UHGV virus genome: UHGV-0048736
DNA from: a virus
Strand: one strand, 5' to 3'
Length of the DNA: 10,511 nucleotides
In this document: positions 1,981-10,461 of the stretch, in pieces
Numbering within the stretch: the stretch's first letter is position 1
Layout of the letters: every line of letters begins with the position of its first letter
Notes under the pieces: model-generated
What the model saw: only the letters and a program-made list of their open reading frames with translations
What the model was told of the DNA's origin: nothing
Databases searched by the model: none
Made by a program: the position numbers and the translations under genes

Positions 1981-2394
1981 TCAGATGGTTTTCAGTATGC
2001 GATCGATGTCGCCGTCATCGCCCTGGTTTCTGCCATCGTATGCCATGCCAGCTGATACGGCTTGCGGGCTGTGCATGTCCATAAAGTTTTCAAAGGCTGC
2101 GGTAAGTTCCGGCGCAACCTTCGGACGTTCCTGCTCTATGGTCATGCTAAGGATGCTTTTAGCCGTACCAACATCGATACAAGGCACGTTTGCCATTGCA
2201 CGTAACAGCGGCTGATAGTCGCCAGATTCATCAAGCGCCATAATCGCATCAGCGCGCGGCTTGTCCTGCTCTTCCAGTTTGTTAAGTTGATATATGGCCT
2301 CGTAGGTTGATAACCCTCTGTCAGCCATTGCCCGCGCTTCGGCTTTAAATTTACTCGCCAGCGGTAGCGTCATGATGCTTTCATTCGTTGCCAT
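1981..2394 (-). CDS. Hypothetical head-module protein, 137 aa
   Basis: ORF with strong Shine-Dalgarno (AGGGGGAACG before ATG), 12 nt after the D-like gene; acidic C-terminal region. Function not assignable from sequence. Confidence 0.6.
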   Translation of the reverse strand: MATNESIMTLPLASKFKAEARAMADRGLSTYEAIYQLNKLEEQDKPRADAIMALDESGDYQPLLRAMANVPCIDVGTAKSILSMTIEQERPKVAPELTAAFENFMDMHSPQAVSAGMAYDGRNQGDDGDIDRILKTI

Positions 2395-2406
2395 CGTTCC
2401 CCCTGC

Positions 2407-2742
2407 TTATCGGGCCAGCGGCTGAACGGATACGCCAGAACCCGCAAAGGCGGCGCATTTTTTCGCATCGGTGTCGACGCTCTCAGGCCAGTTAACGGCG
2501 GCAATATTGAATATCCCCGTCTTGTAACACTGTGCTGATTTCTGCTTTGACGTGTCCACAGGATACGAAGTCAGATAAACAGCCTTGCCAGATTCCTGAC
2601 CATCCCACGGCTTAAACTCGCCATTGTCCGCCAGCATCAGCGGGGTAAATTCCTGAATAACGCCAGCATCAGCGGCAAAATGTACCAGCGTCGTGGCGAC
2701 CTGCTGACTGCCTGCAAATAACTCAATGTATGGAGTGTCCAT
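2407..2742 (-). CDS. Head decoration protein, lambda gpD-like
   Basis: 111 aa (gpD is 110 aa). TPLMLADNGEFKPWDG versus recalled gpD TPLMLDTSSRKLVAWDG; CYKTGIF..NWPE...AKKCAAFAG versus FYKSGTF..LWPE...TKKRTAFAG. GGGGG Shine-Dalgarno. Confidence 0.85.
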   Translation of the reverse strand: MDTPYIELFAGSQQVATTLVHFAADAGVIQEFTPLMLADNGEFKPWDGQESGKAVYLTSYPVDTSKQKSAQCYKTGIFNIAAVNWPESVDTDAKKCAAFAGSGVSVQPLAR

Positions 2743-2753
2743 AGAATCCCCCG

Positions 2754-3809
2754 TTAAGCAATTTTGACGGTAACAAATTTGCGAATATCTGCCGGAACCG
2801 GCTGCGGTGCGCTGTGCGTCTGCACGTACTCAATCGCCGGATCGCCGTCCTCAATCCAGTTTTTCGGGTAAAACATGTTTTGCGTTGCGCCCGTTCTTAC
2901 TGCGTCCTGATCCATAATCGCACCATAGGCCACCAGCCCTTTATTGTTGGTGTTGCCCAGGACAAGCAAATCAGGCTCAAGGAAATATTTTTCTGTGCCG
3001 TCGCTGTCGGCGTATTTGCCGGAATAGACGATAAGGGCAATATCGCCCAGATAGCCTTTAAAGCTCACCACTTCGCCCAGGTTTTTACAGGCCAGCTCTA
3101 CGGCGGACTCTGAACCACGGGAAAGATCGTACAGCTCACGGAATTTTTTAAAGCTGCGTAACGTGCGCCATACCTCAGCGCCCATAATCATGACGTTTGC
3201 GGGGCAACCAGCCTGATCAGCATAAAGCTCGATGTCATAGATTGGATCGTGTGTTTCCTTATCTGCCTCTGACCACTTTTTACCCGGTCCCTGTCTGGCG
3301 ATGTTTTTACTTGGGATCTTCCAGTCTATTTCATAGCGTTCTATGCCTTCGCCCTCAATGATGTTTTTTCCGGTCGTTATCGCATTCACCGCCAGCCATT
3401 CCACGCGCGCTTTAATGGCGTTTATCTGGCGGCGCATGTTGCCAGTAATCAGGCGCATACGGCGGTAGGTAGGGTCGTTAAGCTGTGCTGGATCTTCTCC
3501 AGCCATGCGCATGATGGTTTTTGTTGGATCGATTTCGTGCTTTGGCTTCATGTAGCCAGGTTTGATTGTGCTGGTTTCGTACCCTTTATCGCGCTGAACC
3601 TGGCTACCCACCATAGGCGAACAAAACGCCGACATGGTGACTTCTTCAATGTCCAGGGTATCCAGCATGATGTTTTGCGTGTTGAATGTCGCCACGTTCG
3701 GGAAAAACAGCGTAGTAAACAGAGGGCTGAATTTAAAATCCGCAATATCCCCGCGATTCAGGTACATGAAAAGCTGGTTAGTGTTAAGTGCCGTTGCTTT
3801 GCCTGCCAT
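2754..3809 (-). CDS. Major capsid protein, lambda gpE-like
   Basis: 351 aa (gpE is 341 aa). FKFSPLFTTLFFP versus gpE FKFDPLFLRLFF; KPGYMKPKHEI versus TPGYVKPKHEV; DPTYRRMRLI versus DPAYRRRRII; YPKNWIEDGDPA versus YPKNWVTTGDPA; C-terminal FVTVKIA versus FVSVQLA. GGGGGTG Shine-Dalgarno. Confidence 0.9.
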   Translation of the reverse strand: MAGKATALNTNQLFMYLNRGDIADFKFSPLFTTLFFPNVATFNTQNIMLDTLDIEEVTMSAFCSPMVGSQVQRDKGYETSTIKPGYMKPKHEIDPTKTIMRMAGEDPAQLNDPTYRRMRLITGNMRRQINAIKARVEWLAVNAITTGKNIIEGEGIERYEIDWKIPSKNIARQGPGKKWSEADKETHDPIYDIELYADQAGCPANVMIMGAEVWRTLRSFKKFRELYDLSRGSESAVELACKNLGEVVSFKGYLGDIALIVYSGKYADSDGTEKYFLEPDLLVLGNTNNKGLVAYGAIMDQDAVRTGATQNMFYPKNWIEDGDPAIEYVQTHSAPQPVPADIRKFVTVKIA

Positions 3810-4015
3810 TATTCACCCCCATAATTTTTATGCATCCCAAGCGCCGCAAGTAAATAAGAGCGTACAAGTGAACCTATCGACGGCTCCGGCGTCATCAGCG
3901 GATCCAGTCCAGCCGCTACGCCAGCCTCATAGTTTTTTTTGTGGCGCTGCTTGAGCACCTCCACGATTTCGGGGCTTATGTACACCGAAACACCACCTTT
4001 TTTCTCTTCAGCCAT
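3809..4015 (-). CDS. Hypothetical small protein, 68 aa, translationally coupled to the capsid gene
   Basis: Its TAA stop overlaps the gpE-like ATG by one nucleotide (TAATG); first gene of the head operon. Confidence 0.55.
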   Translation of the reverse strand: MAEEKKGGVSVYISPEIVEVLKQRHKKNYEAGVAAGLDPLMTPEPSIGSLVRSYLLAALGMHKNYGGE

Positions 4016-4050
4016 AGTAAGAAATTCCTCTTCGACTTAAAAAATCATAA

Positions 4051-4139
4051 CTGGATGTTCATCCAGCTCTGATTATAATCAGGATTGCATTTTGTGCAAT
4101 GATATTGAGTTGTGTTGCAAATTATGAAATGATGATCCC
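4051..4139 (-). promoter_or_regulatory. Putative promoter/operator region of the head operon, with clustered palindromes
   Basis: CTGGATG-tt-CATCCAG (4051-4066); perfect 14-bp palindrome CTGATTATAATCAG (4069-4082) containing TATAAT; ATTGCA-N5-TGCAAT (4084-4100); ATGATC-cc-GATCAT (about 4126-4139). All lie 35-125 bp upstream of the operon's first start codon. Confidence 0.4.
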
Positions 4140-4179
4140 GATCATGTGTGTCAGTGCACCAAAAAGCCTCATATGCAAA

Positions 4180-4217
4180 AGCCCGATAAGCCACCTCTGA
4201 CCTTATCGGGCTTTTTT
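4180..4217 (+). terminator. Hairpin plus T-run, plus-strand (possibly bidirectional) terminator
   Basis: AGCCCGATAAG (4180-4190) pairs with CTTATCGGGCT (4202-4212) around an 11-nt loop, followed by T6 and preceded by A4. No plus-strand ORF upstream. Confidence 0.5.
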
Positions 4218-4392
4218 ATCTGCCTGCAAAGATGTCGAACAAAAATTAACCACAACCATCATCTTTTTTGCATCAAAACAATTAAAAACAATAAATTACG
4301 CTCATGATGATGATGACGATAAAATCACAAAAATGCGCTTTTTTCCGCGCCTCCCGCCCCGTGTTCAGGCCCACCCCGCCAGGAGGACCCGT

Positions 4393-4415
4393 AAAAAAGC
4401 CGGATTGCTCCGGCT
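4393..4415 (-). terminator. Rho-independent terminator after ssb
   Basis: AGCCGGA-ttgc-TCCGGCT hairpin preceded on the plus strand by A6 (4393-4398); 16 nt past the ssb stop. Near-identical to the 1951-1974 terminator. Confidence 0.7.
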
Positions 4416-4430
4416 TCTGTCACTCGTCGC

Positions 4431-4853
4431 TTAAAACGGTATGTTATCCCCGTACGGATCATCATTCCCCGCCTGTTGTTTTGCCCTGTTCAGCGCGTCA
4501 GTAGCCTGGCCCTGTTGACCTTTTTTGCCGCCCAGTCGCGCCGTTCGCGCACTGATTACACTGTCTGCGATAACCTGCCAGCCCTGCCGCGTTTCTCCGT
4601 TCTGCCCAGTCCACTGGCTGATCTGCATGTTACCCGCCACGCTCAGGAGTTCACCCTTGCGGTGCCTTTCCAGTGCTTCGGCCTGTCTGCCAAATGCCAG
4701 GACGGATAACCACATCGTCGCCGTTCCGTCATCTGCCTGGCTGCACGGAAGGGGGACCGCCATACGCGCCAGCGTCATCGGTGTGCCCTTGCTGGTCTGT
4801 TTTACCTGCGGGTCGTCCACCAGCCGCCCGTAAGCGGCTATCTGTGCTGTCAT
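4431..4853 (-). CDS. ssb: Single-stranded DNA-binding protein
   Basis: 140 aa. OB-fold pattern alignable to E. coli SSB (TMWLSVLAFGRQAEALERHRKGELLSVAGNMQISQWTGQNGETR versus [44 protein letters not shown]); Gly/Gln-rich linker; C-terminal tail DDPYGDNIPF like SSB DFDDDIPF. ATGA start/stop overlap with the upstream 85-aa ORF. Confidence 0.8.
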   Translation of the reverse strand: MTAQIAAYGRLVDDPQVKQTSKGTPMTLARMAVPLPCSQADDGTATMWLSVLAFGRQAEALERHRKGELLSVAGNMQISQWTGQNGETRQGWQVIADSVISARTARLGGKKGQQGQATDALNRAKQQAGNDDPYGDNIPF

Positions 4854-5107
4854 GATTCCACCTCTCCGGTTTTAACGTTGATGGTTGTTACCTGTTCCGC
4901 TTCGGCAATCTCCCATTCTGTCAGCGTGGCAAAGTTTGCCGCCGCTGTGGTCATGAATGCGCTTATCAGGTCGGGATGTGCTTTCGCGTATCCTTCCCCC
5001 GTGTTGCGGTCGATGATTTTTATCGCCACTCTCAGCCAGTGCTCTGTAAGGTCAATGGCGCGGTTATGCTGCTTCTTCTGATTATTAAGTTTTCCTGATG
5101 TGCGCAT
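4850..5107 (-). CDS. Hypothetical protein, 85 aa
   Basis: ORF with GAGGGGG Shine-Dalgarno, coupled to ssb by ATGA overlap, immediately downstream of the iteron region. Confidence 0.55.
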   Translation of the reverse strand: MRTSGKLNNQKKQHNRAIDLTEHWLRVAIKIIDRNTGEGYAKAHPDLISAFMTTAAANFATLTEWEIAEAEQVTTINVKTGEVES

Positions 5108-5154
5108 TTTTATTTTTACCCCCTCGTTTAAAAAGTTTTGAGTTGTGCCTCCCC

Positions 5155-5383
5155 TTGTCTACCTTATCAACCTTACTGGCCACCATGCCAGTAATGGCGC
5201 GGCTTTCAGTGGGGTAGAGTGCTTTTATCCACTATCTACCCCGTATCTACCTCCCTGTCTGATTCAGGTAAAATCAGGTAGAGAGGGTAGATAGTAGGTA
5301 GACAGTAAAAAAAGGCTGTCTACCCAAGTTAATGTACTGAATTAAATGTATTTTTCTTTACTCTGGTAGACAGGGTAGACAGC
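5155..5383. repeat. Iteron array with AT-rich spacer: putative replication origin
   Basis: About ten copies of GGTAGA(C/T/G)AG in both orientations (5155-5164, 5213-5221, 5232-5240, 5243-5251, 5277-5285, 5286-5294, 5297-5305, 5316-5325, 5365-5373, 5374-5382). AT-rich stretch at 5326-5360. Directly downstream of the primase/helicase gene. Confidence 0.65.
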
Positions 5384-5395
5384 CATTGCAACAAA

Positions 5396-7144
5396 TTATA
5401 AAAACGCGTCGCAATCGTCTGTTGTTATTGCGTTAGTCTGCGTTACTCCTTTAACTTTCCGCGTAATATATTCATGTCCGTAAACTTTCGCGGCTGGCTT
5501 CATAGCCTTGCCAAAGTCATTTACGTTTAGCGGTTTGCTCCTGCCTGCGTACGCCATAAACGCCAGATAGACGCGGTAAAGGCTGTTTCTGGTCGTGTAC
5601 TTCACTGAATCGCCACCGCCGCCCATCATCAGGCCGCGTGCTTCCTCCAGAAAATTCAGGAACTGGCAAAACTCAATAACCGGATCCGTCTGTTGCTTTA
5701 TTGCCAGTGCTTCATCACCGTCACGCTGTTCAATGAGTAAAGCCCGTGCCTTTTCAGGGTCGGCAAAGTTCGCCAGCAAGCGGCGGATAATGACAGGGAT
5801 TTCAGCCGCGATCTTTTCCGGTAGCTCCCTGTCTTTTTCTGCCTCGCTTACGATGTTATCGAACCGGAATATCACCCGACGACGTGCCACACCTCCGGCC
5901 CGTTCGGTGAATATCATCGGATTGTTATTGGTTGCCAGCACCACCGCCCTGATTACCGCCGTAAAACGCTTTTCATATTTCGGGTTAATTTCCACGGGGT
6001 CGCCGCCCGTGATTTTCTTGATGCCCGTTCCTTCGCCTGTATATTTCGGCTGGTCTGCCAGGACGATAAGACGACTCCCGACAACCTGCGCACGCCCACC
6101 AGCATCATCAAGCGATGTCATTTCAGCGCTTACCGTGTTTTGTTTCCCTGCCAGAAGGCTGGCTATGTGTGTGAATGTACTTTTACCGCTCCCGCCGTCT
6201 CCGGTGGCCTCAATAAACATCTGCCAGTCGTACCGGTTCGCCATAATCATGTACAGCGCGGCACATATACGCATCATCTTGCGCGGGTCTTTTCCGGCTG
6301 CGTGCTCAAGCCATTTATGAAAGTTTGGCGCGTTATCGCGGATGTTCTCCCCGGGTGCTGGTGGCGTGTACTCAATGCCGTTGTGCGTGGTGATCCAGTT
6401 CTCCGGCGTGTGCGGGGAAAATTCCCCCGTTTTCAGGTCAAGCGCACCATTGGCGAACGGCAGCAAATCGCCGGACGGCTCGCCCATTGGTTCGGCAATA
6501 ACTTTTAACGCTTCCACGGCGTTATTGATTACGCGCTTGCTGAAAGTGGCCCTGTGCTCTGAATAGATCGCCACCATTTCGCGGCTCAGCTCCATTGTGC
6601 TGACCGGACACCATACCCCGCCGCGCCATACGTGAACGATTTCACTTTCAGGATGCACACAAACGCCATCAAAGCGCTCGGCAAGCAGCTGCGCACGCTC
6701 ACTGTCTGCCATTTGTGCCAGTTGCGTATTTTTCTGCTCCGGCATGGTAAGCCCTGCGGCAATATTTTCACGCTCAGCATTCAGATAGCGCCGCCAGTTT
6801 TCACACTTCTGGACGTGCATTCCTTCGGGGTAAAAATTTGCGTCCTGAATATCTGCCGCCGCCAGCTTCTGACCAATCTTTTTGGTCTCCACCAAATCCA
6901 GTTCTCCGGCCTGGTACAGCCTTACGCGCTTTTTCCCATCCGGAACAATTTTCAGTGCATCAAGTTCGGCAAGCTGATTTGGCCCAAGCCACACAGGCGG
7001 CACATTATCGCCGGATGCGGGGCCATCCTGCTCCTGCCATTGTTTCGCGTGCGACCAGGCATCACTACCCGCGAAAATAATTACCTCTGTGTCTTTGTGT
7101 TTTATTCCGCGTGGCTGTTTTTTTACGTTCGGTGCCAGTTTCAT
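5396..7144 (-). CDS. Replication protein: primase / SF3 (D5- or P4-alpha-type) helicase
   Basis: 582 aa. Walker A EATGDGGSGKSTF, downstream Walker B-like hydrophobic stretch (RLIVLADQP) and C-terminal region typical of P4-family primase/helicase; N-terminal roughly 250 aa is primase-like. ATGA overlap with the upstream 99-aa gene; CAGGGG Shine-Dalgarno. Confidence 0.9.
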   Translation of the reverse strand: MKLAPNVKKQPRGIKHKDTEVIIFAGSDAWSHAKQWQEQDGPASGDNVPPVWLGPNQLAELDALKIVPDGKKRVRLYQAGELDLVETKKIGQKLAAADIQDANFYPEGMHVQKCENWRRYLNAERENIAAGLTMPEQKNTQLAQMADSERAQLLAERFDGVCVHPESEIVHVWRGGVWCPVSTMELSREMVAIYSEHRATFSKRVINNAVEALKVIAEPMGEPSGDLLPFANGALDLKTGEFSPHTPENWITTHNGIEYTPPAPGENIRDNAPNFHKWLEHAAGKDPRKMMRICAALYMIMANRYDWQMFIEATGDGGSGKSTFTHIASLLAGKQNTVSAEMTSLDDAGGRAQVVGSRLIVLADQPKYTGEGTGIKKITGGDPVEINPKYEKRFTAVIRAVVLATNNNPMIFTERAGGVARRRVIFRFDNIVSEAEKDRELPEKIAAEIPVIIRRLLANFADPEKARALLIEQRDGDEALAIKQQTDPVIEFCQFLNFLEEARGLMMGGGGDSVKYTTRNSLYRVYLAFMAYAGRSKPLNVNDFGKAMKPAAKVYGHEYITRKVKGVTQTNAITTDDCDAFL

Positions 7145-7445: not shown

Positions 7446-7673
7446 TTATTCTCCGGTGTGCTGCGCTTTATTATTCTCGTGAATTGCCATCACTGTATTT
7501 AATTCATTAATAACAGGCGTTAATAGCGTACGCACGGCAGAAAACATCATTGAATCAGATTCATCGCCACTTTCCGGCACATCAATTAACTTAAGTAGTA
7601 ATGCGTCCATTTCCTTTGCGCGGATTAATGCGTTTTCAGAATGAACAAGAACATCAAAGGGTATTTTATGCAT
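7446..7673 (-). CDS. Hypothetical protein, 75 aa
   Basis: ORF with CAGGGGGTGAG Shine-Dalgarno; acidic small protein; 5-nt gap to the next gene. Confidence 0.55.
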   Translation of the reverse strand: MHKIPFDVLVHSENALIRAKEMDALLLKLIDVPESGDESDSMMFSAVRTLLTPVINELNTVMAIHENNKAQHTGE

Positions 7674-7869
7674 GACTCACCCCCTGGCGAATACGGGCAG
7701 CGAATACCATCACGCAGCCATCAGGAGATTGCTGACGCGCTTCCTGTTCGCTGGTGGCCTCAATGGTAATCACGCGCGGTTGTGCAGTGCTCAGGGTGAT
7801 AAAACGCCAGATGTATTTATTCAGGTTGTGCGAGTCCCGCCCTTGCGGGTGTGTGGTATGATTTCTCAT
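7666..7869 (-). CDS. Hypothetical small protein, 67 aa, first gene of the leftward early operon (possibly Icd-like; weak)
   Basis: Taken from the internal ATG at 7869 (GAGG Shine-Dalgarno 6-9 nt upstream) of a spurious 305-aa ORF. The position upstream of the primase mirrors the P4 left operon. The YIWRF...EQEARQ pattern is reminiscent of Icd-like proteins, but that is from memory only. Confidence 0.45.
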   Translation of the reverse strand: MRNHTTHPQGRDSHNLNKYIWRFITLSTAQPRVITIEATSEQEARQQSPDGCVMVFAARIRQGVSHA

Positions 7870-7965
7870 AGCTACCTCGATACTTTCGCTATCGTTGGTG
7901 GTTAGAAGCCCGGTTAGTGTTAGCGCACTGCCGGGTTTCGTCGTTTCTGCACCTTGCGCCAACAA

Positions 7966-8020
7966 GGTGTTGAACACCAATTTAAACCCAGGTGTTAAAC
8001 ACGTCAAGTGTTGAACACTT
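7966..8020. promoter_or_regulatory. Three operator-like palindromes (GTGTT-N-AACAC) in the divergent control region
   Basis: GGTGTT-G-AACACC (7966-7978), GTGTT-A-AACAC (7992-8002), AAGTGTT-G-AACACTT (8006-8020). A possible sigma70 promoter (TTGAAC -35 inside site 3, CATACT -10) faces the plus-strand regulator gene. Confidence 0.6.
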
Positions 8021-8068
8021 ATTTTTTTTCCTGCATACTGCATTTGTTTTTTATGAGGGGTACACCAC

Positions 8069-8248
8069 ATGGCGACAAAAGCAGTAAACGCAAAATCACA
8101 AACCGTTGCGGCAAGGGTTCCGCATGAAGTTATGAACAATGTTGAGGCGGTAAAAATGCCTGGCGAAAGTACGGGGCAATTTGTTACTGCGGCATTAAAA
8201 CGAGAAGTTGAATATCGCCAGCGGCGCAAGGCCAAAGAACCAGAGTAA
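8069..8248 (+). CDS. Small putative DNA-binding regulator, 59 aa (possibly ribbon-helix-helix)
   Basis: Not in the ORF track because it is under 60 aa. ATG at 8069 with GAGGGG Shine-Dalgarno 8 nt upstream; stop TAA at 8246-8248. Translation MATKAVNAKSQTVAARVPHEVMNNVEAVKMPGESTGQFVTAALKREVEYRQRRKAKEPE has a strand-helix-helix-like pattern and a basic tail. Sits immediately downstream of the operator triplet. Confidence 0.6.
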   Translation: MATKAVNAKSQTVAARVPHEVMNNVEAVKMPGESTGQFVTAALKREVEYRQRRKAKEPE

Positions 8249-8290
8249 TCACCATCAGCGCCGTGGTGTAAGGTATTACGGCGCATTGCT

Positions 8291-8479
8291 ATGCAGGACA
8301 ACACAATGACCGATAAAGAATTGACCAAAACATTATCACCGGCACGGAAAAGACGGCGCAGAAAGATAGAGCATGAATCAGAAAGATTCGCGCCATGTGC
8401 TTTTGCCCTTGAGCAATTCCTTAAAGAGTACAGGGAAAAGCGCTCATTGCAGGTATGGCAACGAACTGAACCAGACTGA
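8291..8479 (+). CDS. Hypothetical small protein (62 aa, or 57 aa from the ATG at 8306)
   Basis: ORF downstream of the small regulator gene and upstream of the plus-strand terminator. An AGGA Shine-Dalgarno-like motif favours the 8306 start. Arg-rich, no recognisable motif. Confidence 0.3.
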   Translation: MQDNTMTDKELTKTLSPARKRRRRKIEHESERFAPCAFALEQFLKEYREKRSLQVWQRTEPD

Positions 8480-8546
8480 TTGCATTGCCCACCAGCCGCA
8501 AATGTGGCATTGTTGGTGATGCGTTCAAGTTTAGTGTGTATCCATT

Positions 8547-8573
8547 GGCGACCGCCCCCGGTCGCCTTTGTTT
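8547..8573 (+). terminator. Rho-independent terminator of the rightward regulatory transcript
   Basis: GGCGACC-gccccc-GGTCGCC hairpin (8547-8566) followed by TTTGTTTT. Confidence 0.65.
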
Positions 8574-8593
8574 TATATGTCATATGCTCCCCT

Positions 8594-8803
8594 TTACGCT
8601 GCCTTACCTGAATTAATGCGATCCCGGCTTTTAACCCATTCCATAACCTCGGACAGCAGCCAACCTACAGAACGCCCACCAAGATTACGGCGAGACGGAA
8701 AGCTCCCTTTTTTCTCCAGTTCGTAGCGTGTAGTGCGACACACTCCAGTTAACTTACGACATTCATCCTCACGGATTACGCGATCTTCATTTATTTCACG
8801 CAT
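8594..8803 (-). CDS. alpA: AlpA-family phage transcriptional regulator
   Basis: 69 aa from the internal ATG at 8803 (the 98-aa ORF in the track starts at a GTG inside AT-rich promoter-like sequence). C-terminal half ...RRNLGGRSVGWLLSEVMEWVKSR fits the AlpA-family pattern as I recall it. Located next to the integrase as in P4-like elements and PICIs. Confidence 0.7.
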   Translation of the reverse strand: MREINEDRVIREDECRKLTGVCRTTRYELEKKGSFPSRRNLGGRSVGWLLSEVMEWVKSRDRINSGKAA

Positions 8804-8926
8804 ACAAAAACCTACATAAAAATTACGTATATAAACTTTTCTCTTAGCTGTAGATATATGAGATCGGATATTACTTAGATTCTTTTTCACCTATTAAATT
8901 AAAAACACAACCATGCTAAAGGCTTT

Positions 8927-9222: not shown

Positions 9223-10461
9223 TCAAGAATTTTGGGGGTAAATTCGCGGGGTCATAACAACGATTTTTTCATCATTGTTCTGGAGAAGCTCGAGACGGTC
9301 TACCCATAGATTAAGAGCATCACGTTTTGCATCAAGGTAGCGGGAGTGGTTATAGACTCGTTGCATCCCTGGCATCTGGTGGGCTGTAAGCTGCTCGACA
9401 ATATGCGGATCCACGCCTAAATCGTTCAGTATGGTTGTAAATGTGTGCCGGATATCGTGTAACGTCCAGGGGGCTTGATTAATTCGTCTGTGCGCTGTTC
9501 TTCCGTACTCTGCTACCGAAGATTGTCCTTTCAGTTCACCAAGCAATAAGCCTGTGTGTCTGTTCTGCTCCACCAGTTGCGTGACGAACGGCAAAATGCT
9601 TTCCGGTATTGGCCTGAATATGGCGACCTTCGTTTTGCTGTGCTCCTTCGGTACTGTCCAGAGCATTTCTTTAAAATCCCACTCCTGCACCTCAGAGCGC
9701 CTTAGCTCAGTGGTACGGCATCCAAAAACAATCAGGAGGCGAATTAGGGCGCTGTAGTATGGCGGGAATATTTTGTCATCCAGGGCGCGGAGTAATTCCC
9801 CAAGCTCCTTATTTGTTAGTACGCGCTCGCTCACTTCTGCTTTTTTTCCCACATCACCGACAACCATATCATCAAGAACGTTGCTGATTGCGTATCGTCG
9901 TTTTCGGCAGTACTTAAGCGCCTGTTTGCATACCTGTAGCAAAAATCCGGCAGATACTGGGCTTCGCTTTGCCATCTGGTCAAAACATGCCAACCAGTGC
10001 CGTAGCTCGCATTTTTCCAACGGCAAAGCGCCAATCTGGCTGATTATGTGTTTATTGATCCGGCTTTTCAGTGATTCGTAGTCAGTGCGCTTTTCCTTTG
10101 CATACGATTCAAGCCAGTAAGTGAGCGCTTCCTTAACTGTCACGGGGGCTAACGCATCCTGTACAGCACGATTAAGCTCATAGCGCGGATTTTTCCCCTC
10201 AGCCAGCCAGGCGCGACACTGTGCTGCTTTTTCCCTGGCTGCTTTCAGGCTCAGATCGGGATAATTGCCCAGTCTCAGACGTTCCGGTGATACCTGCCTA
10301 CCAGTTCCGGCCCTGTAAGTGAAATACCAGGTTAACAGGCCGCTGGTGGAATGTCTTACGCTAAGATTGCCACCGTCATTAAAAAAGGCGTTTTTTGTGG
10401 TTGGTGATCCGCTTAATTTTCGTAAAAGAGTGTCGCTAAGTCTATGAATTGCGCTGCTCAT
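9223..10461 (-). CDS. int: Tyrosine site-specific integrase, P4-type
   Basis: 412 aa. C-terminal catalytic region with HDIRHT (His-x-x-Arg) and a downstream tyrosine (RVYNHSRYL); N-terminal region typical of the P4-integrase arm-binding domain. Start codon 25 nt from the right att repeat. Confidence 0.93.
   Translation of the reverse strand: MSSAIHRLSDTLLRKLSGSPTTKNAFFNDGGNLSVRHSTSGLLTWYFTYRAGTGRQVSPERLRLGNYPDLSLKAAREKAAQCRAWLAEGKNPRYELNRAVQDALAPVTVKEALTYWLESYAKEKRTDYESLKSRINKHIISQIGALPLEKCELRHWLACFDQMAKRSPVSAGFLLQVCKQALKYCRKRRYAISNVLDDMVVGDVGKKAEVSERVLTNKELGELLRALDDKIFPPYYSALIRLLIVFGCRTTELRRSEVQEWDFKEMLWTVPKEHSKTKVAIFRPIPESILPFVTQLVEQNRHTGLLLGELKGQSSVAEYGRTAHRRINQAPWTLHDIRHTFTTILNDLGVDPHIVEQLTAHQMPGMQRVYNHSRYLDAKRDALNLWVDRLELLQNNDEKIVVMTPRIYPQNS

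Follow-up and report, generated by a model that had tools for sequence, protein, structure and literature searches.

Organization of the island

The window, i.e. the whole stretch of 10,511 nucleotides analysed here, is on sequence grounds an EcCICFT073-like phage-inducible chromosomal island (PICI), a phage satellite of E. coli. Every credible gene lies on its minus strand. Gene calls and family searches identified a tyrosine integrase (9223-10461), and gene calls and Pfam the AlpA protein (8594-8890, PF05930). The AlpA open reading frame as listed has a GTG start and 98 aa; the Pfam domain and the homologues fit an internal ATG at 8803 (69 aa). A DUF4222 protein is encoded between AlpA and the D5-type primase (5396-7144), and an SSB follows at 4431-4853. 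An intergenic region of 415 bp separates the SSB gene from the first gene of the next operon (3809-4015), which encodes a 68-aa homologue of c1498 matching phrog_3255 and has its ATG at 4015..4013 and the ribosome-binding site AGAGGA at 4031..4026, on the minus strand. Behind it are genes for a lambda E-like capsid protein (2754-3809; PF03864, 6e-50), a lambda D-like decoration protein (2407-2742; PF02924, 1e-17) and a 137-aa protein that is similar to the C-terminal part of a head protease/scaffold (1981-2394). Matches to phrog_1999 and phrog_53 fall within this capsid-homologue unit (1981-3809). A Nu1-like small terminase or Rpp-type protein is encoded at 1231-1773. The AF2 monomer model of the 68-aa protein consists of a coil and two helices (pLDDT 75), and searches of folds, PDB profiles and Pfam gave no match for it. 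An earlier sequence-only reading linked the region upstream of this operon to capsid production. This wording is too strong, since the E and D homologues of EcCICFT073 are reported to be dispensable for transfer and interference (PMC6092414).

The intergenic DNA is 95% identical to that of E. coli CFT073 at the EcCICFT073 locus, where the operon genes are c1498-c1501. A 111-bp stretch around the palindromes described below is found in 601 of 5426 complete E. coli genomes (~11%), among them Nissle 1917, ATCC 25922 and O157:H7 and O145 strains. None of these E. coli genomes carries an annotated feature at this place.

A conserved block upstream of the capsid-homologue operon

A palindrome search of the whole window (arms of at least 6, loops of at most 6) returned 30 palindromes in 10.5 kb. 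Four of them lie inside 95 bp (4051-4145), the densest cluster of the window: CTGGATGttCATCCAG (4051-4066, 7-bp arms), the perfect 14-mer CTGATTATAATCAG (4069-4082), which contains TATAAT on both strands, ATTGCAttttgTGCAAT (4084-4100, 6-bp arms) and ATGATCccGATCAT (4132-4145, 6-bp arms). Both the cluster and the perfect 14-bp palindrome around TATAAT had been noticed in the sequence-only reading, and both were found again here, directly upstream of the first capsid-homologue gene, the operon being on the minus strand. The span then given, 4051-4139, does hold the cluster, but the fourth palindrome extends 6 bp beyond it. In 300 dinucleotide-preserving shuffles of the whole window, four or more palindromes per 100 bp occurred with P=0.003 and three or more within 52 bp with P=0.02; such a density was reached in none of 1000 shuffles of the 415-bp intergenic region.

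To place the cluster in an evolutionary context, relatives were gathered via the 68-aa protein, via two DNA patterns in IMG/VR, and from CFT073. Together they amount to 134 loci, found in E. coli, Salmonella and metagenomes. Across this set, a block of about 85 bp (4049-4131) is nearly invariant and reads, from 4131 to 4049 on the operon strand, ATCATTTCATAATTTGCAAC...TTGCACAAAATGCAAT..TGATTATAATCA...CTGGATGAACATCCAGTT. The invariant columns in the alignment of relatives are TTGC, AAAATGCAA, TGATTATAA, CTGGAT and AT.CAGT, and the DNA immediately upstream of the block is completely different between lineages. In a comparison with a Salmonella element (56% identity between the 68-aa proteins), nucleotide identity is 79.5% in the block, 58.5% in the 68-aa gene, 69.5% in the capsid gene and 53.6% in the 100 bp upstream of the block. 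The block is thus more conserved than the adjacent coding DNA and therefore under purifying selection. Palindromes 1-3 are conserved in the relatives; the fourth, which lies outside the block, is not. It is broken in CFT073 (GATCGGGATAAA) and absent from the relatives L002 and L005 and from the Salmonella lineages, where other sequence replaces it, and is probably incidental.

These data bear on one alternative, namely that short palindromes have clustered by chance in AT-rich intergenic DNA and have no function. Short dyads are indeed plentiful in such DNA, and the lack of conservation of the fourth palindrome would fit. The shuffling results speak against it, however, and the conservation of the block beyond that of the neighbouring genes already contradicts chance, so that we consider this explanation extremely improbable.

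The most divergent relative, locus L182 (305-442 of metagenome contig ERZ1034969 NODE-4161), also encodes a 68-aa protein that is 56% identical. It has no 16-bp SOS box (see below), and keeps the upstream dyad O2, a perfect O1, a TAAAAT hexamer in place of TATAAT and a short AATCA/TGATT hairpin. Rfam gave no family in the palindrome region and sub-threshold matches elsewhere in the window, blastn of 4016-4230 against a phage database and scans of genome contigs gave no match, and the literature found holds nothing on these sequences themselves, nor on LexA control of Gram-negative PICIs.

Promoter elements

The block 4049-4131 is very probably, judging from its conserved elements, a tightly built and regulated promoter of the capsid-homologue operon. 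Inside the 14-bp palindrome, the minus strand carries a perfect consensus -10 hexamer, TATAAT (4077..4072), that is kept in 132 of the 134 loci; the exceptions are TATAAC in one locus and TAAAAT in L182. The longer string TGATTATAATCA is present in 130/134. Upstream, with a 16-bp spacer, is a weak -35-like hexamer, TTGCAC (4094..4099, minus strand), which agrees with the consensus at 3/6 positions and is at the same time the left half-site of the dyad O1. Within this hexamer, TTGC alone is conserved (alignment A3). Transcription is predicted to start at about 4063-4067, near 4065. The promoter scan did not call the TTGCAC/TATAAT site because it demands 4/6 matches at -35. The alternative promoter that it proposed, TTCATA-18-TATCAT, was discarded, its -10 being unconserved in Salmonella.

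The suggestion of a tightly controlled promoter, made in the sequence-only reading, thus holds as far as TATAAT, the dyads and the fixed spacings are concerned, all of them near-invariant over 134 loci. It does not hold for the 14-bp palindrome. In 10 of 34 sequences the outermost bases of this 14-mer fail to pair, so that its symmetry is not maintained, and we rejected it as a selected dyad.

A putative LexA site at the predicted start

The gene-proximal palindrome (core 4051-4066) looks like a good LexA/SOS box rather than an AlpA target. The SOS-box-like 20-mer AGCTGGATGAACATCCAGTT (4068..4049, minus strand) starts 4 bp past TATAAT and spans about -3 to +17 relative to the predicted start. 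It has the format of an SOS box, with a 16-bp core CTG-N10-CAG, an AT-rich centre and the frame TACTGTATATATATACAGTA. Scored with a position weight matrix built from known E. coli SOS boxes, the 20-mer reached 20.2 bits (real boxes: median 20.1, minimum 13.3). The next best site in the window scored 7.1 bits, and 200 shuffles gave no match. In a second test, which used 18 published boxes (PMC3009722, Table 4), its heterology index (HI) is 8.1, against 0.3-8.5 for these boxes, and an HI of 5.2-9.2 is kept in 132 of the 134 loci. Only one palindrome of the cluster matches a known operator, that of LexA, which lends no support to the earlier proposal of a switch by AlpA or helper induction. The 14-mer was also considered as a second LexA box and dismissed (HI 31).

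The conservation count of the SOS box is partly circular, because the pattern that brought in 85 of the 134 loci demanded its CTGGAT...ATCCAG arms. The independent sample consists of 37 loci retrieved by protein; the upstream sequence was examined in 35 of them, and the box is kept in 34. Variants that spoil the palindrome (CTGGATGTTCATACAG, CTGGATGAACATACAG; ATACAG) turn CCAG into the consensus ACAG. They shift towards the LexA consensus, as would be predicted by selection for LexA binding and not by selection for a hairpin. Against the LexA model stands L182, the most divergent homologue, in which the box is missing. This locus is a natural deletion variant and as such useful for the LexA hypothesis. 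Induction of PICIs through alpA has been reported to be SOS-independent (PMC6092414). In genotoxic-stress data for CFT073 exposed to AGXX, c1500 changed by +0.38 (not significant); the rows available for this data set include neither sulA nor c1498 nor c1499, so it is uninformative.

Dyads O1 and O2

Two further dyads lie upstream of the -10 hexamer. O1, TTGCA-N5-TGCAA (4085..4099, within the palindrome 4084-4100), is centred at about -27, and its left half doubles as the -35. It is conserved in the 134 loci and a perfect palindrome in L182. O2, TTTCA-N5-TGCAA (4115..4129), centred at about -57, repeats O1 in degenerate form, exactly 30 bp further upstream; TTTCATAATTTGCAA (O2) is present in 125/134 loci. 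Together they form a direct repeat (D2) of 19 nt, 79% identical, with a spacing of 30. Neither this 30-bp spacing nor the 6-bp gap from O1 to the -10 is altered in Salmonella or even in L182. From these features we infer that O1 and O2 (TTKCA-N5-TGCAA) are candidate operators of a second dimeric regulator, most simply a repressor because of its position. The motif does not recur elsewhere in the ~130 PICI loci, in other intergenic regions, in PalpA or in the helper phage lambda. The orphan dyads offer a handle for finding the missing regulator.

Two candidates for this role were set aside. PerC, as an obligatory neighbour and regulator, is contradicted by the distribution of perC, which was detected upstream in only 53 of 95 loci and is absent from the window and from the Salmonella loci. 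The product of the 68-aa gene, as a ribbon-helix-helix autorepressor acting on O1/O2, gave an E of 0.15 for RHH_1 and 0.12 for BrnA, in one homologue only, and this reading has no fold or PDB support.

Hairpins and probable terminators

The SOS-box-like palindrome forms the apex of a larger structure. On the operon strand, the extended hairpin AAUCAGAGCUGGAU-GAAC-AUCCAGUUAUGAUU followed by six U (4039..4074, minus strand) resembles an intrinsic terminator, having both the stem-loop and the U-run. The AATCA that ends TATAATCA pairs with TGATT past the SOS box, and the 5' arm (4074..4061) begins inside the -10. Because of this overlap, the hairpin would be complete only in RNAs starting upstream of 4077. 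RNA folding gave -13.4 kcal/mol (z -5.0) for the window and -17.7 kcal/mol (z -7.1) for CFT073. The stem, AU-rich with four G-C pairs, has 14 pairs that are paired in 95% of alignment cells, and the T-run is invariant. At three pairs both partners have changed, for example from C-G to U-A at 67/93. Such compensatory changes indicate that something besides LexA also constrains the DNA of the block. At wobble pairs, 24 cells are compatible with the sense RNA vs 8 with the antisense RNA.

Among these changes, the replacement of AATCA/TGATT by AATTA/TAATT breaks the 14-bp palindrome and keeps the extended hairpin. Here a C-to-T change in the right half of the palindrome is compensated in the downstream arm and not in the left half. 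As the compensation sits in the downstream hairpin arm, the 14-bp palindrome is best seen as a -10 plus one arm of the larger hairpin.

Two more terminator-like hairpins were found in the intergenic region. T2, GCCCGATAAG...CTTATCGGGC (4176..4217; inverted repeat I1), appears to work in both directions, being followed by six T on the plus strand and by four on the minus. Its folding energy is -23.5 kcal/mol (z -5.6); it is conserved in the E. coli relatives and marks the upstream limit of the control region. The predicted terminator T1, AAGCCGGAGCAATCCGGCTT followed by T's (4397..4416, minus strand, 8-bp arms), comes after the SSB gene and closes the replication operon. The same hairpin also follows perC in CFT073, L002 and L005.

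Expression of the operon in CFT073

A published RNA-seq study of CFT073 shifted from 23 to 37 °C provides expression data for the homologous operon (PMC12890032, supplementary table). The log2 fold changes were +2.24 for c1498, +2.05 for c1499, +1.45 for c1500 and +1.17 for c1501, all significant and corresponding to a 2.2- to 4.7-fold change, whereas SSB (+0.24), primase (+0.31), c1503 (+0.33) and sulA (+0.25) were unchanged (PMC12890032). The authors themselves remarked on the induction of this part of the island (c1498-c1501, 5032-7066 of our CFT073 locus L001) while the rest of it stayed flat (PMC12890032). Since c1498-c1501 change apart from the upstream genes, a separately regulated unit begins between SSB/perC and c1498. 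This fits a promoter at 4049-4131. The induction at 37 °C occurred without SOS, as seen from sulA, so LexA cannot be the sole control and repression is not tight. The protein binding O1/O2 is a candidate for the remaining, non-LexA control, and it may be what raises c1498-c1501 expression at 37 °C in uropathogenic E. coli.

Proposed regulation and alternative explanations

We lean, with slightly more confidence than doubt, towards a sigma-70 promoter-operator of the capsid-homologue operon in which LexA would occupy the start site and another dimeric regulator O1/O2. According to this model, RNA polymerase with sigma-70 would use TATAAT and the weak TTGCAC on the minus strand, with a start near 4065. 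A LexA dimer on -3 to +17 would block initiation, and RecA-stimulated cleavage of LexA upon DNA damage, the signal that is also the inducer of lambdoid helper prophages, would free the promoter. A second dimeric regulator, most simply a repressor, would act at O1/O2. The hairpin and its U-run would stop transcripts arriving from upstream and, together with T1 and T2, insulate the operon from the AlpA-driven replication operon. The 14-bp palindrome would then be mostly a by-product of the -10 and of the AATCA that pairs with the downstream TGATT.

Another way to read the palindromes, and that of the sequence-only reading, is as sites through which the PICI activator AlpA or an induced helper-phage protein turns the promoter on. 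EcCICFT073 is known to be activated by AlpA, which also acts positively on its own promoter (PMC6092414); the strongly conserved O1 and O2 have no assigned binder, and a weak -35 suits an activator-dependent promoter. However, no motif common to this region and the alpA promoter, other intergenic regions of the island or lambda rises above the level of shuffled sequences, and the dyad recurs neither elsewhere in the ~130 PICI loci nor in the helper phage lambda. Activators are also not usually centred at -27 and -57, and the former position overlaps the core promoter. Moreover, CFT073 cultures that have not been induced express and regulate the operon, with no change in the AlpA-dependent replication genes. 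A switch by AlpA or the helper is in our judgement unlikely. The terminator-like hairpin could instead belong to a terminator/attenuator of the lambda pR'-Q type, to which we attach a similarly low probability. RNAs from an upstream start, e.g. at the invariant CATAAT (4125..4120) or from read-through, would stop at the 4039-4074 hairpin after ~75 nt, the capsid genes would be reached only with an antiterminator, and the internal TATAAT would be a sigma-dependent pause site. On the operon strand, a hairpin of -13.4 to -17.7 kcal/mol with six U could credibly serve as an intrinsic terminator, and its compensatory changes and mostly sense-fitting wobble pairs (24 vs 8 cells) agree with a role in RNA. 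The placing of a dyad between -35 and -10 and of a terminator before the first gene also recalls the architecture of Q and of P. aeruginosa AlpA (PMC7969949, PMC9371919). Yet the upstream promoter would have no conserved -35, since conservation ends at 4131, and TATAAT, at about +38, would be far past known sigma-dependent pause positions. In L182 the main stem is gone, although the dyads and the -10 are retained. Similarity to lambda pR' does not go beyond chance 13-mers; a 13-mer that the region has in common with the lambda 6S region is likewise at chance level. For the TATAAT promoter itself, the initially transcribed region is the SOS box and contains no -10-like hexamer of the Q-type pause. 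The island AlpA was considered as a Q-like antiterminator and rejected. It is a PF05930 protein of ~70 aa whose top match in the PDB is 8c3t ('AlpA family phage regulatory protein'), and no match to the cryo-EM chains of P. aeruginosa AlpA (PaAlpA) was found. The two proteins are unrelated in sequence, so the shared name is coincidental.

The palindromic -10 could also fire on the plus strand, as a symmetric two-way promoter with a second start near 4086. The resulting RNA of ~130 nt would end at T2 (4176-4217), and the block would be the 5' part of a small RNA. TATAAT is identical on both strands and the -35 equally poor (3/6) both ways; in all E. coli relatives it is the plus-strand side of T2 that has the longer T-run (six to seven), although T2 has no gene before it on that strand; folding of the plus-strand RNA gave a z of -3.4; and the SOS box also covers the -35 of the plus-strand promoter. 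On the other side, Rfam has no match for such an RNA, the 45 nt that separate the block from T2 are entirely different from lineage to lineage with no visible compensation, wobble pairs in two hairpins favour the minus-strand RNA, and a 33-codon ORF on the plus strand is unconserved. Taken together, we find this two-way arrangement improbable. A combination of these elements with the LexA model, speculative and rather doubtful to us, would be a gate in which the promoter sits inside the terminator, with the -10 in the 5' arm of the terminator and the LexA operator at its apex. Transcription that comes in from the replication operon driven by AlpA would be stopped, the capsid-like genes would be reached only by internal initiation, licensed by LexA cleavage and the O1/O2 regulator, and the symmetric -10 may fire backwards to give an SOS-controlled small RNA ending at T2. 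If the gate were true, the late module of Gram-negative PICIs would be an independent SOS-sensing unit, convergent with operon I of the staphylococcal SaPIs.

Returning to the promoter-operator with LexA, its interest lies in the timing of late genes (capsid-homologue and packaging genes), which for Gram-negative PICIs is not described in the literature found. The known control of these elements consists only of AlpA autoregulation and of helper-dependent induction of alpA (PMC6092414, PMC6739421). The hypothesis put forward here is that the late module senses DNA damage directly via LexA, apart from the AlpA switch; it makes of a conserved region present in ~11% of complete E. coli genomes a concrete hypothesis. 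If LexA does not bind, the region would be an ordinary, well-conserved promoter.

Comparison with known regulatory systems

The closest parallel is found in staphylococci, where the promoter of SaPI operon I is reportedly controlled by LexA (Ubeda et al. 2007, Mol Microbiol 65:41). Their paper is cited in both E. coli PICI papers, in which LexA is otherwise unmentioned (PMC6092414, PMC6739421). In both cases a phage satellite has a packaging/capsid-related operon with its own SOS-box promoter, the box here being a predicted one, and the operon would be freed by the same DNA-damage signal as the helper prophage, as we propose for this island. The E. coli element differs by its two further conserved dyads, by the overlapping hairpin and by the SOS-independent induction of alpA. 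The staphylococcal LexA motif differs in sequence, and any relation to SaPI operon I would therefore be convergent. Among E. coli boxes, those of ruvAB and cho (CGCTGGATATCTATCCAGCA, CACTGGATAGATAACCAGCA; PMC3009722, Table 4) are of the same CTGG...CCAG subtype with a similar HI, and the 20-mer has exactly the arms of the ruvAB box, CTGGAT-N4-ATCCAG. Differences lie in the four central bases and in the flanks, and the box lies here in a mobile element, not before a repair gene.

With lambda pR'/Q and P. aeruginosa PalpB/AlpA, the region has in common a binding element between -35 and -10 and a hairpin with a U-run before the first gene. In contrast to both, the 5' arm of the hairpin overlaps the -10, so that transcripts of this promoter would contain only part of the hairpin; a -10-like pause element is missing after the start, and the island AlpA is unrelated in sequence to the P. 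aeruginosa antiterminator. Warman et al. (2021, Nat Microbiol) are said to have described symmetric bidirectional promoters, in which opposite-strand -10 elements overlap through sequence symmetry. The TATAAT palindrome likewise represents overlapping opposite-strand -10s. The hexamers are here offset by 3 bp, which would place the starts ~21 bp apart, vs the 18 typical of bidirectional promoters.

Other features of the island

Two exact copies of the lambda cosN 12-mer GGGCGGCGACCT are present in opposite orientation, at 1040-1051 on the plus strand and 1907-1918 on the minus strand. They flank the Nu1-like gene and a 93-aa gene, in agreement with the cos1 and cos2 sites reported for EcCICFT073. 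The palindrome region had also been considered as a cos site, and the location of these 12-mers led us to drop this idea. A 170-bp segment (4228-4397) of the intergenic region is missing from CFT073, where the perC gene occupies that place. It is 88-92% identical to DNA of many E. coli prophages, and in the Sakai prophage Sp15 its homologue lies between the Rz endopeptidase and small terminase genes, which is the lambdoid cos position. This segment may be a packaging-site fragment captured from another helper type.

Downstream of the primase gene, at 5220-5317 on the minus strand, are long inverted and direct repeats with iterons of the CTACC type, which gave a spurious Rfam match to mir-3927. 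These iterons are presumably the replication origin of the PICI, and the palindrome region was accordingly discarded as an origin, iterons being located elsewhere. Finally, a sub-threshold Rfam match to the SymR antitoxin RNA (33 bits vs a gathering threshold of 61, E=0.003) was obtained at 7870-7942 on the plus strand. It falls inside a doubtful 305-aa ORF (7666-8583), in a region that has no protein-family support, and short plus-strand ORFs, including 8069-8248 and 8291-8479, oppose the general gene direction. The area around 7870-7942 could be a regulatory RNA or an immunity region.
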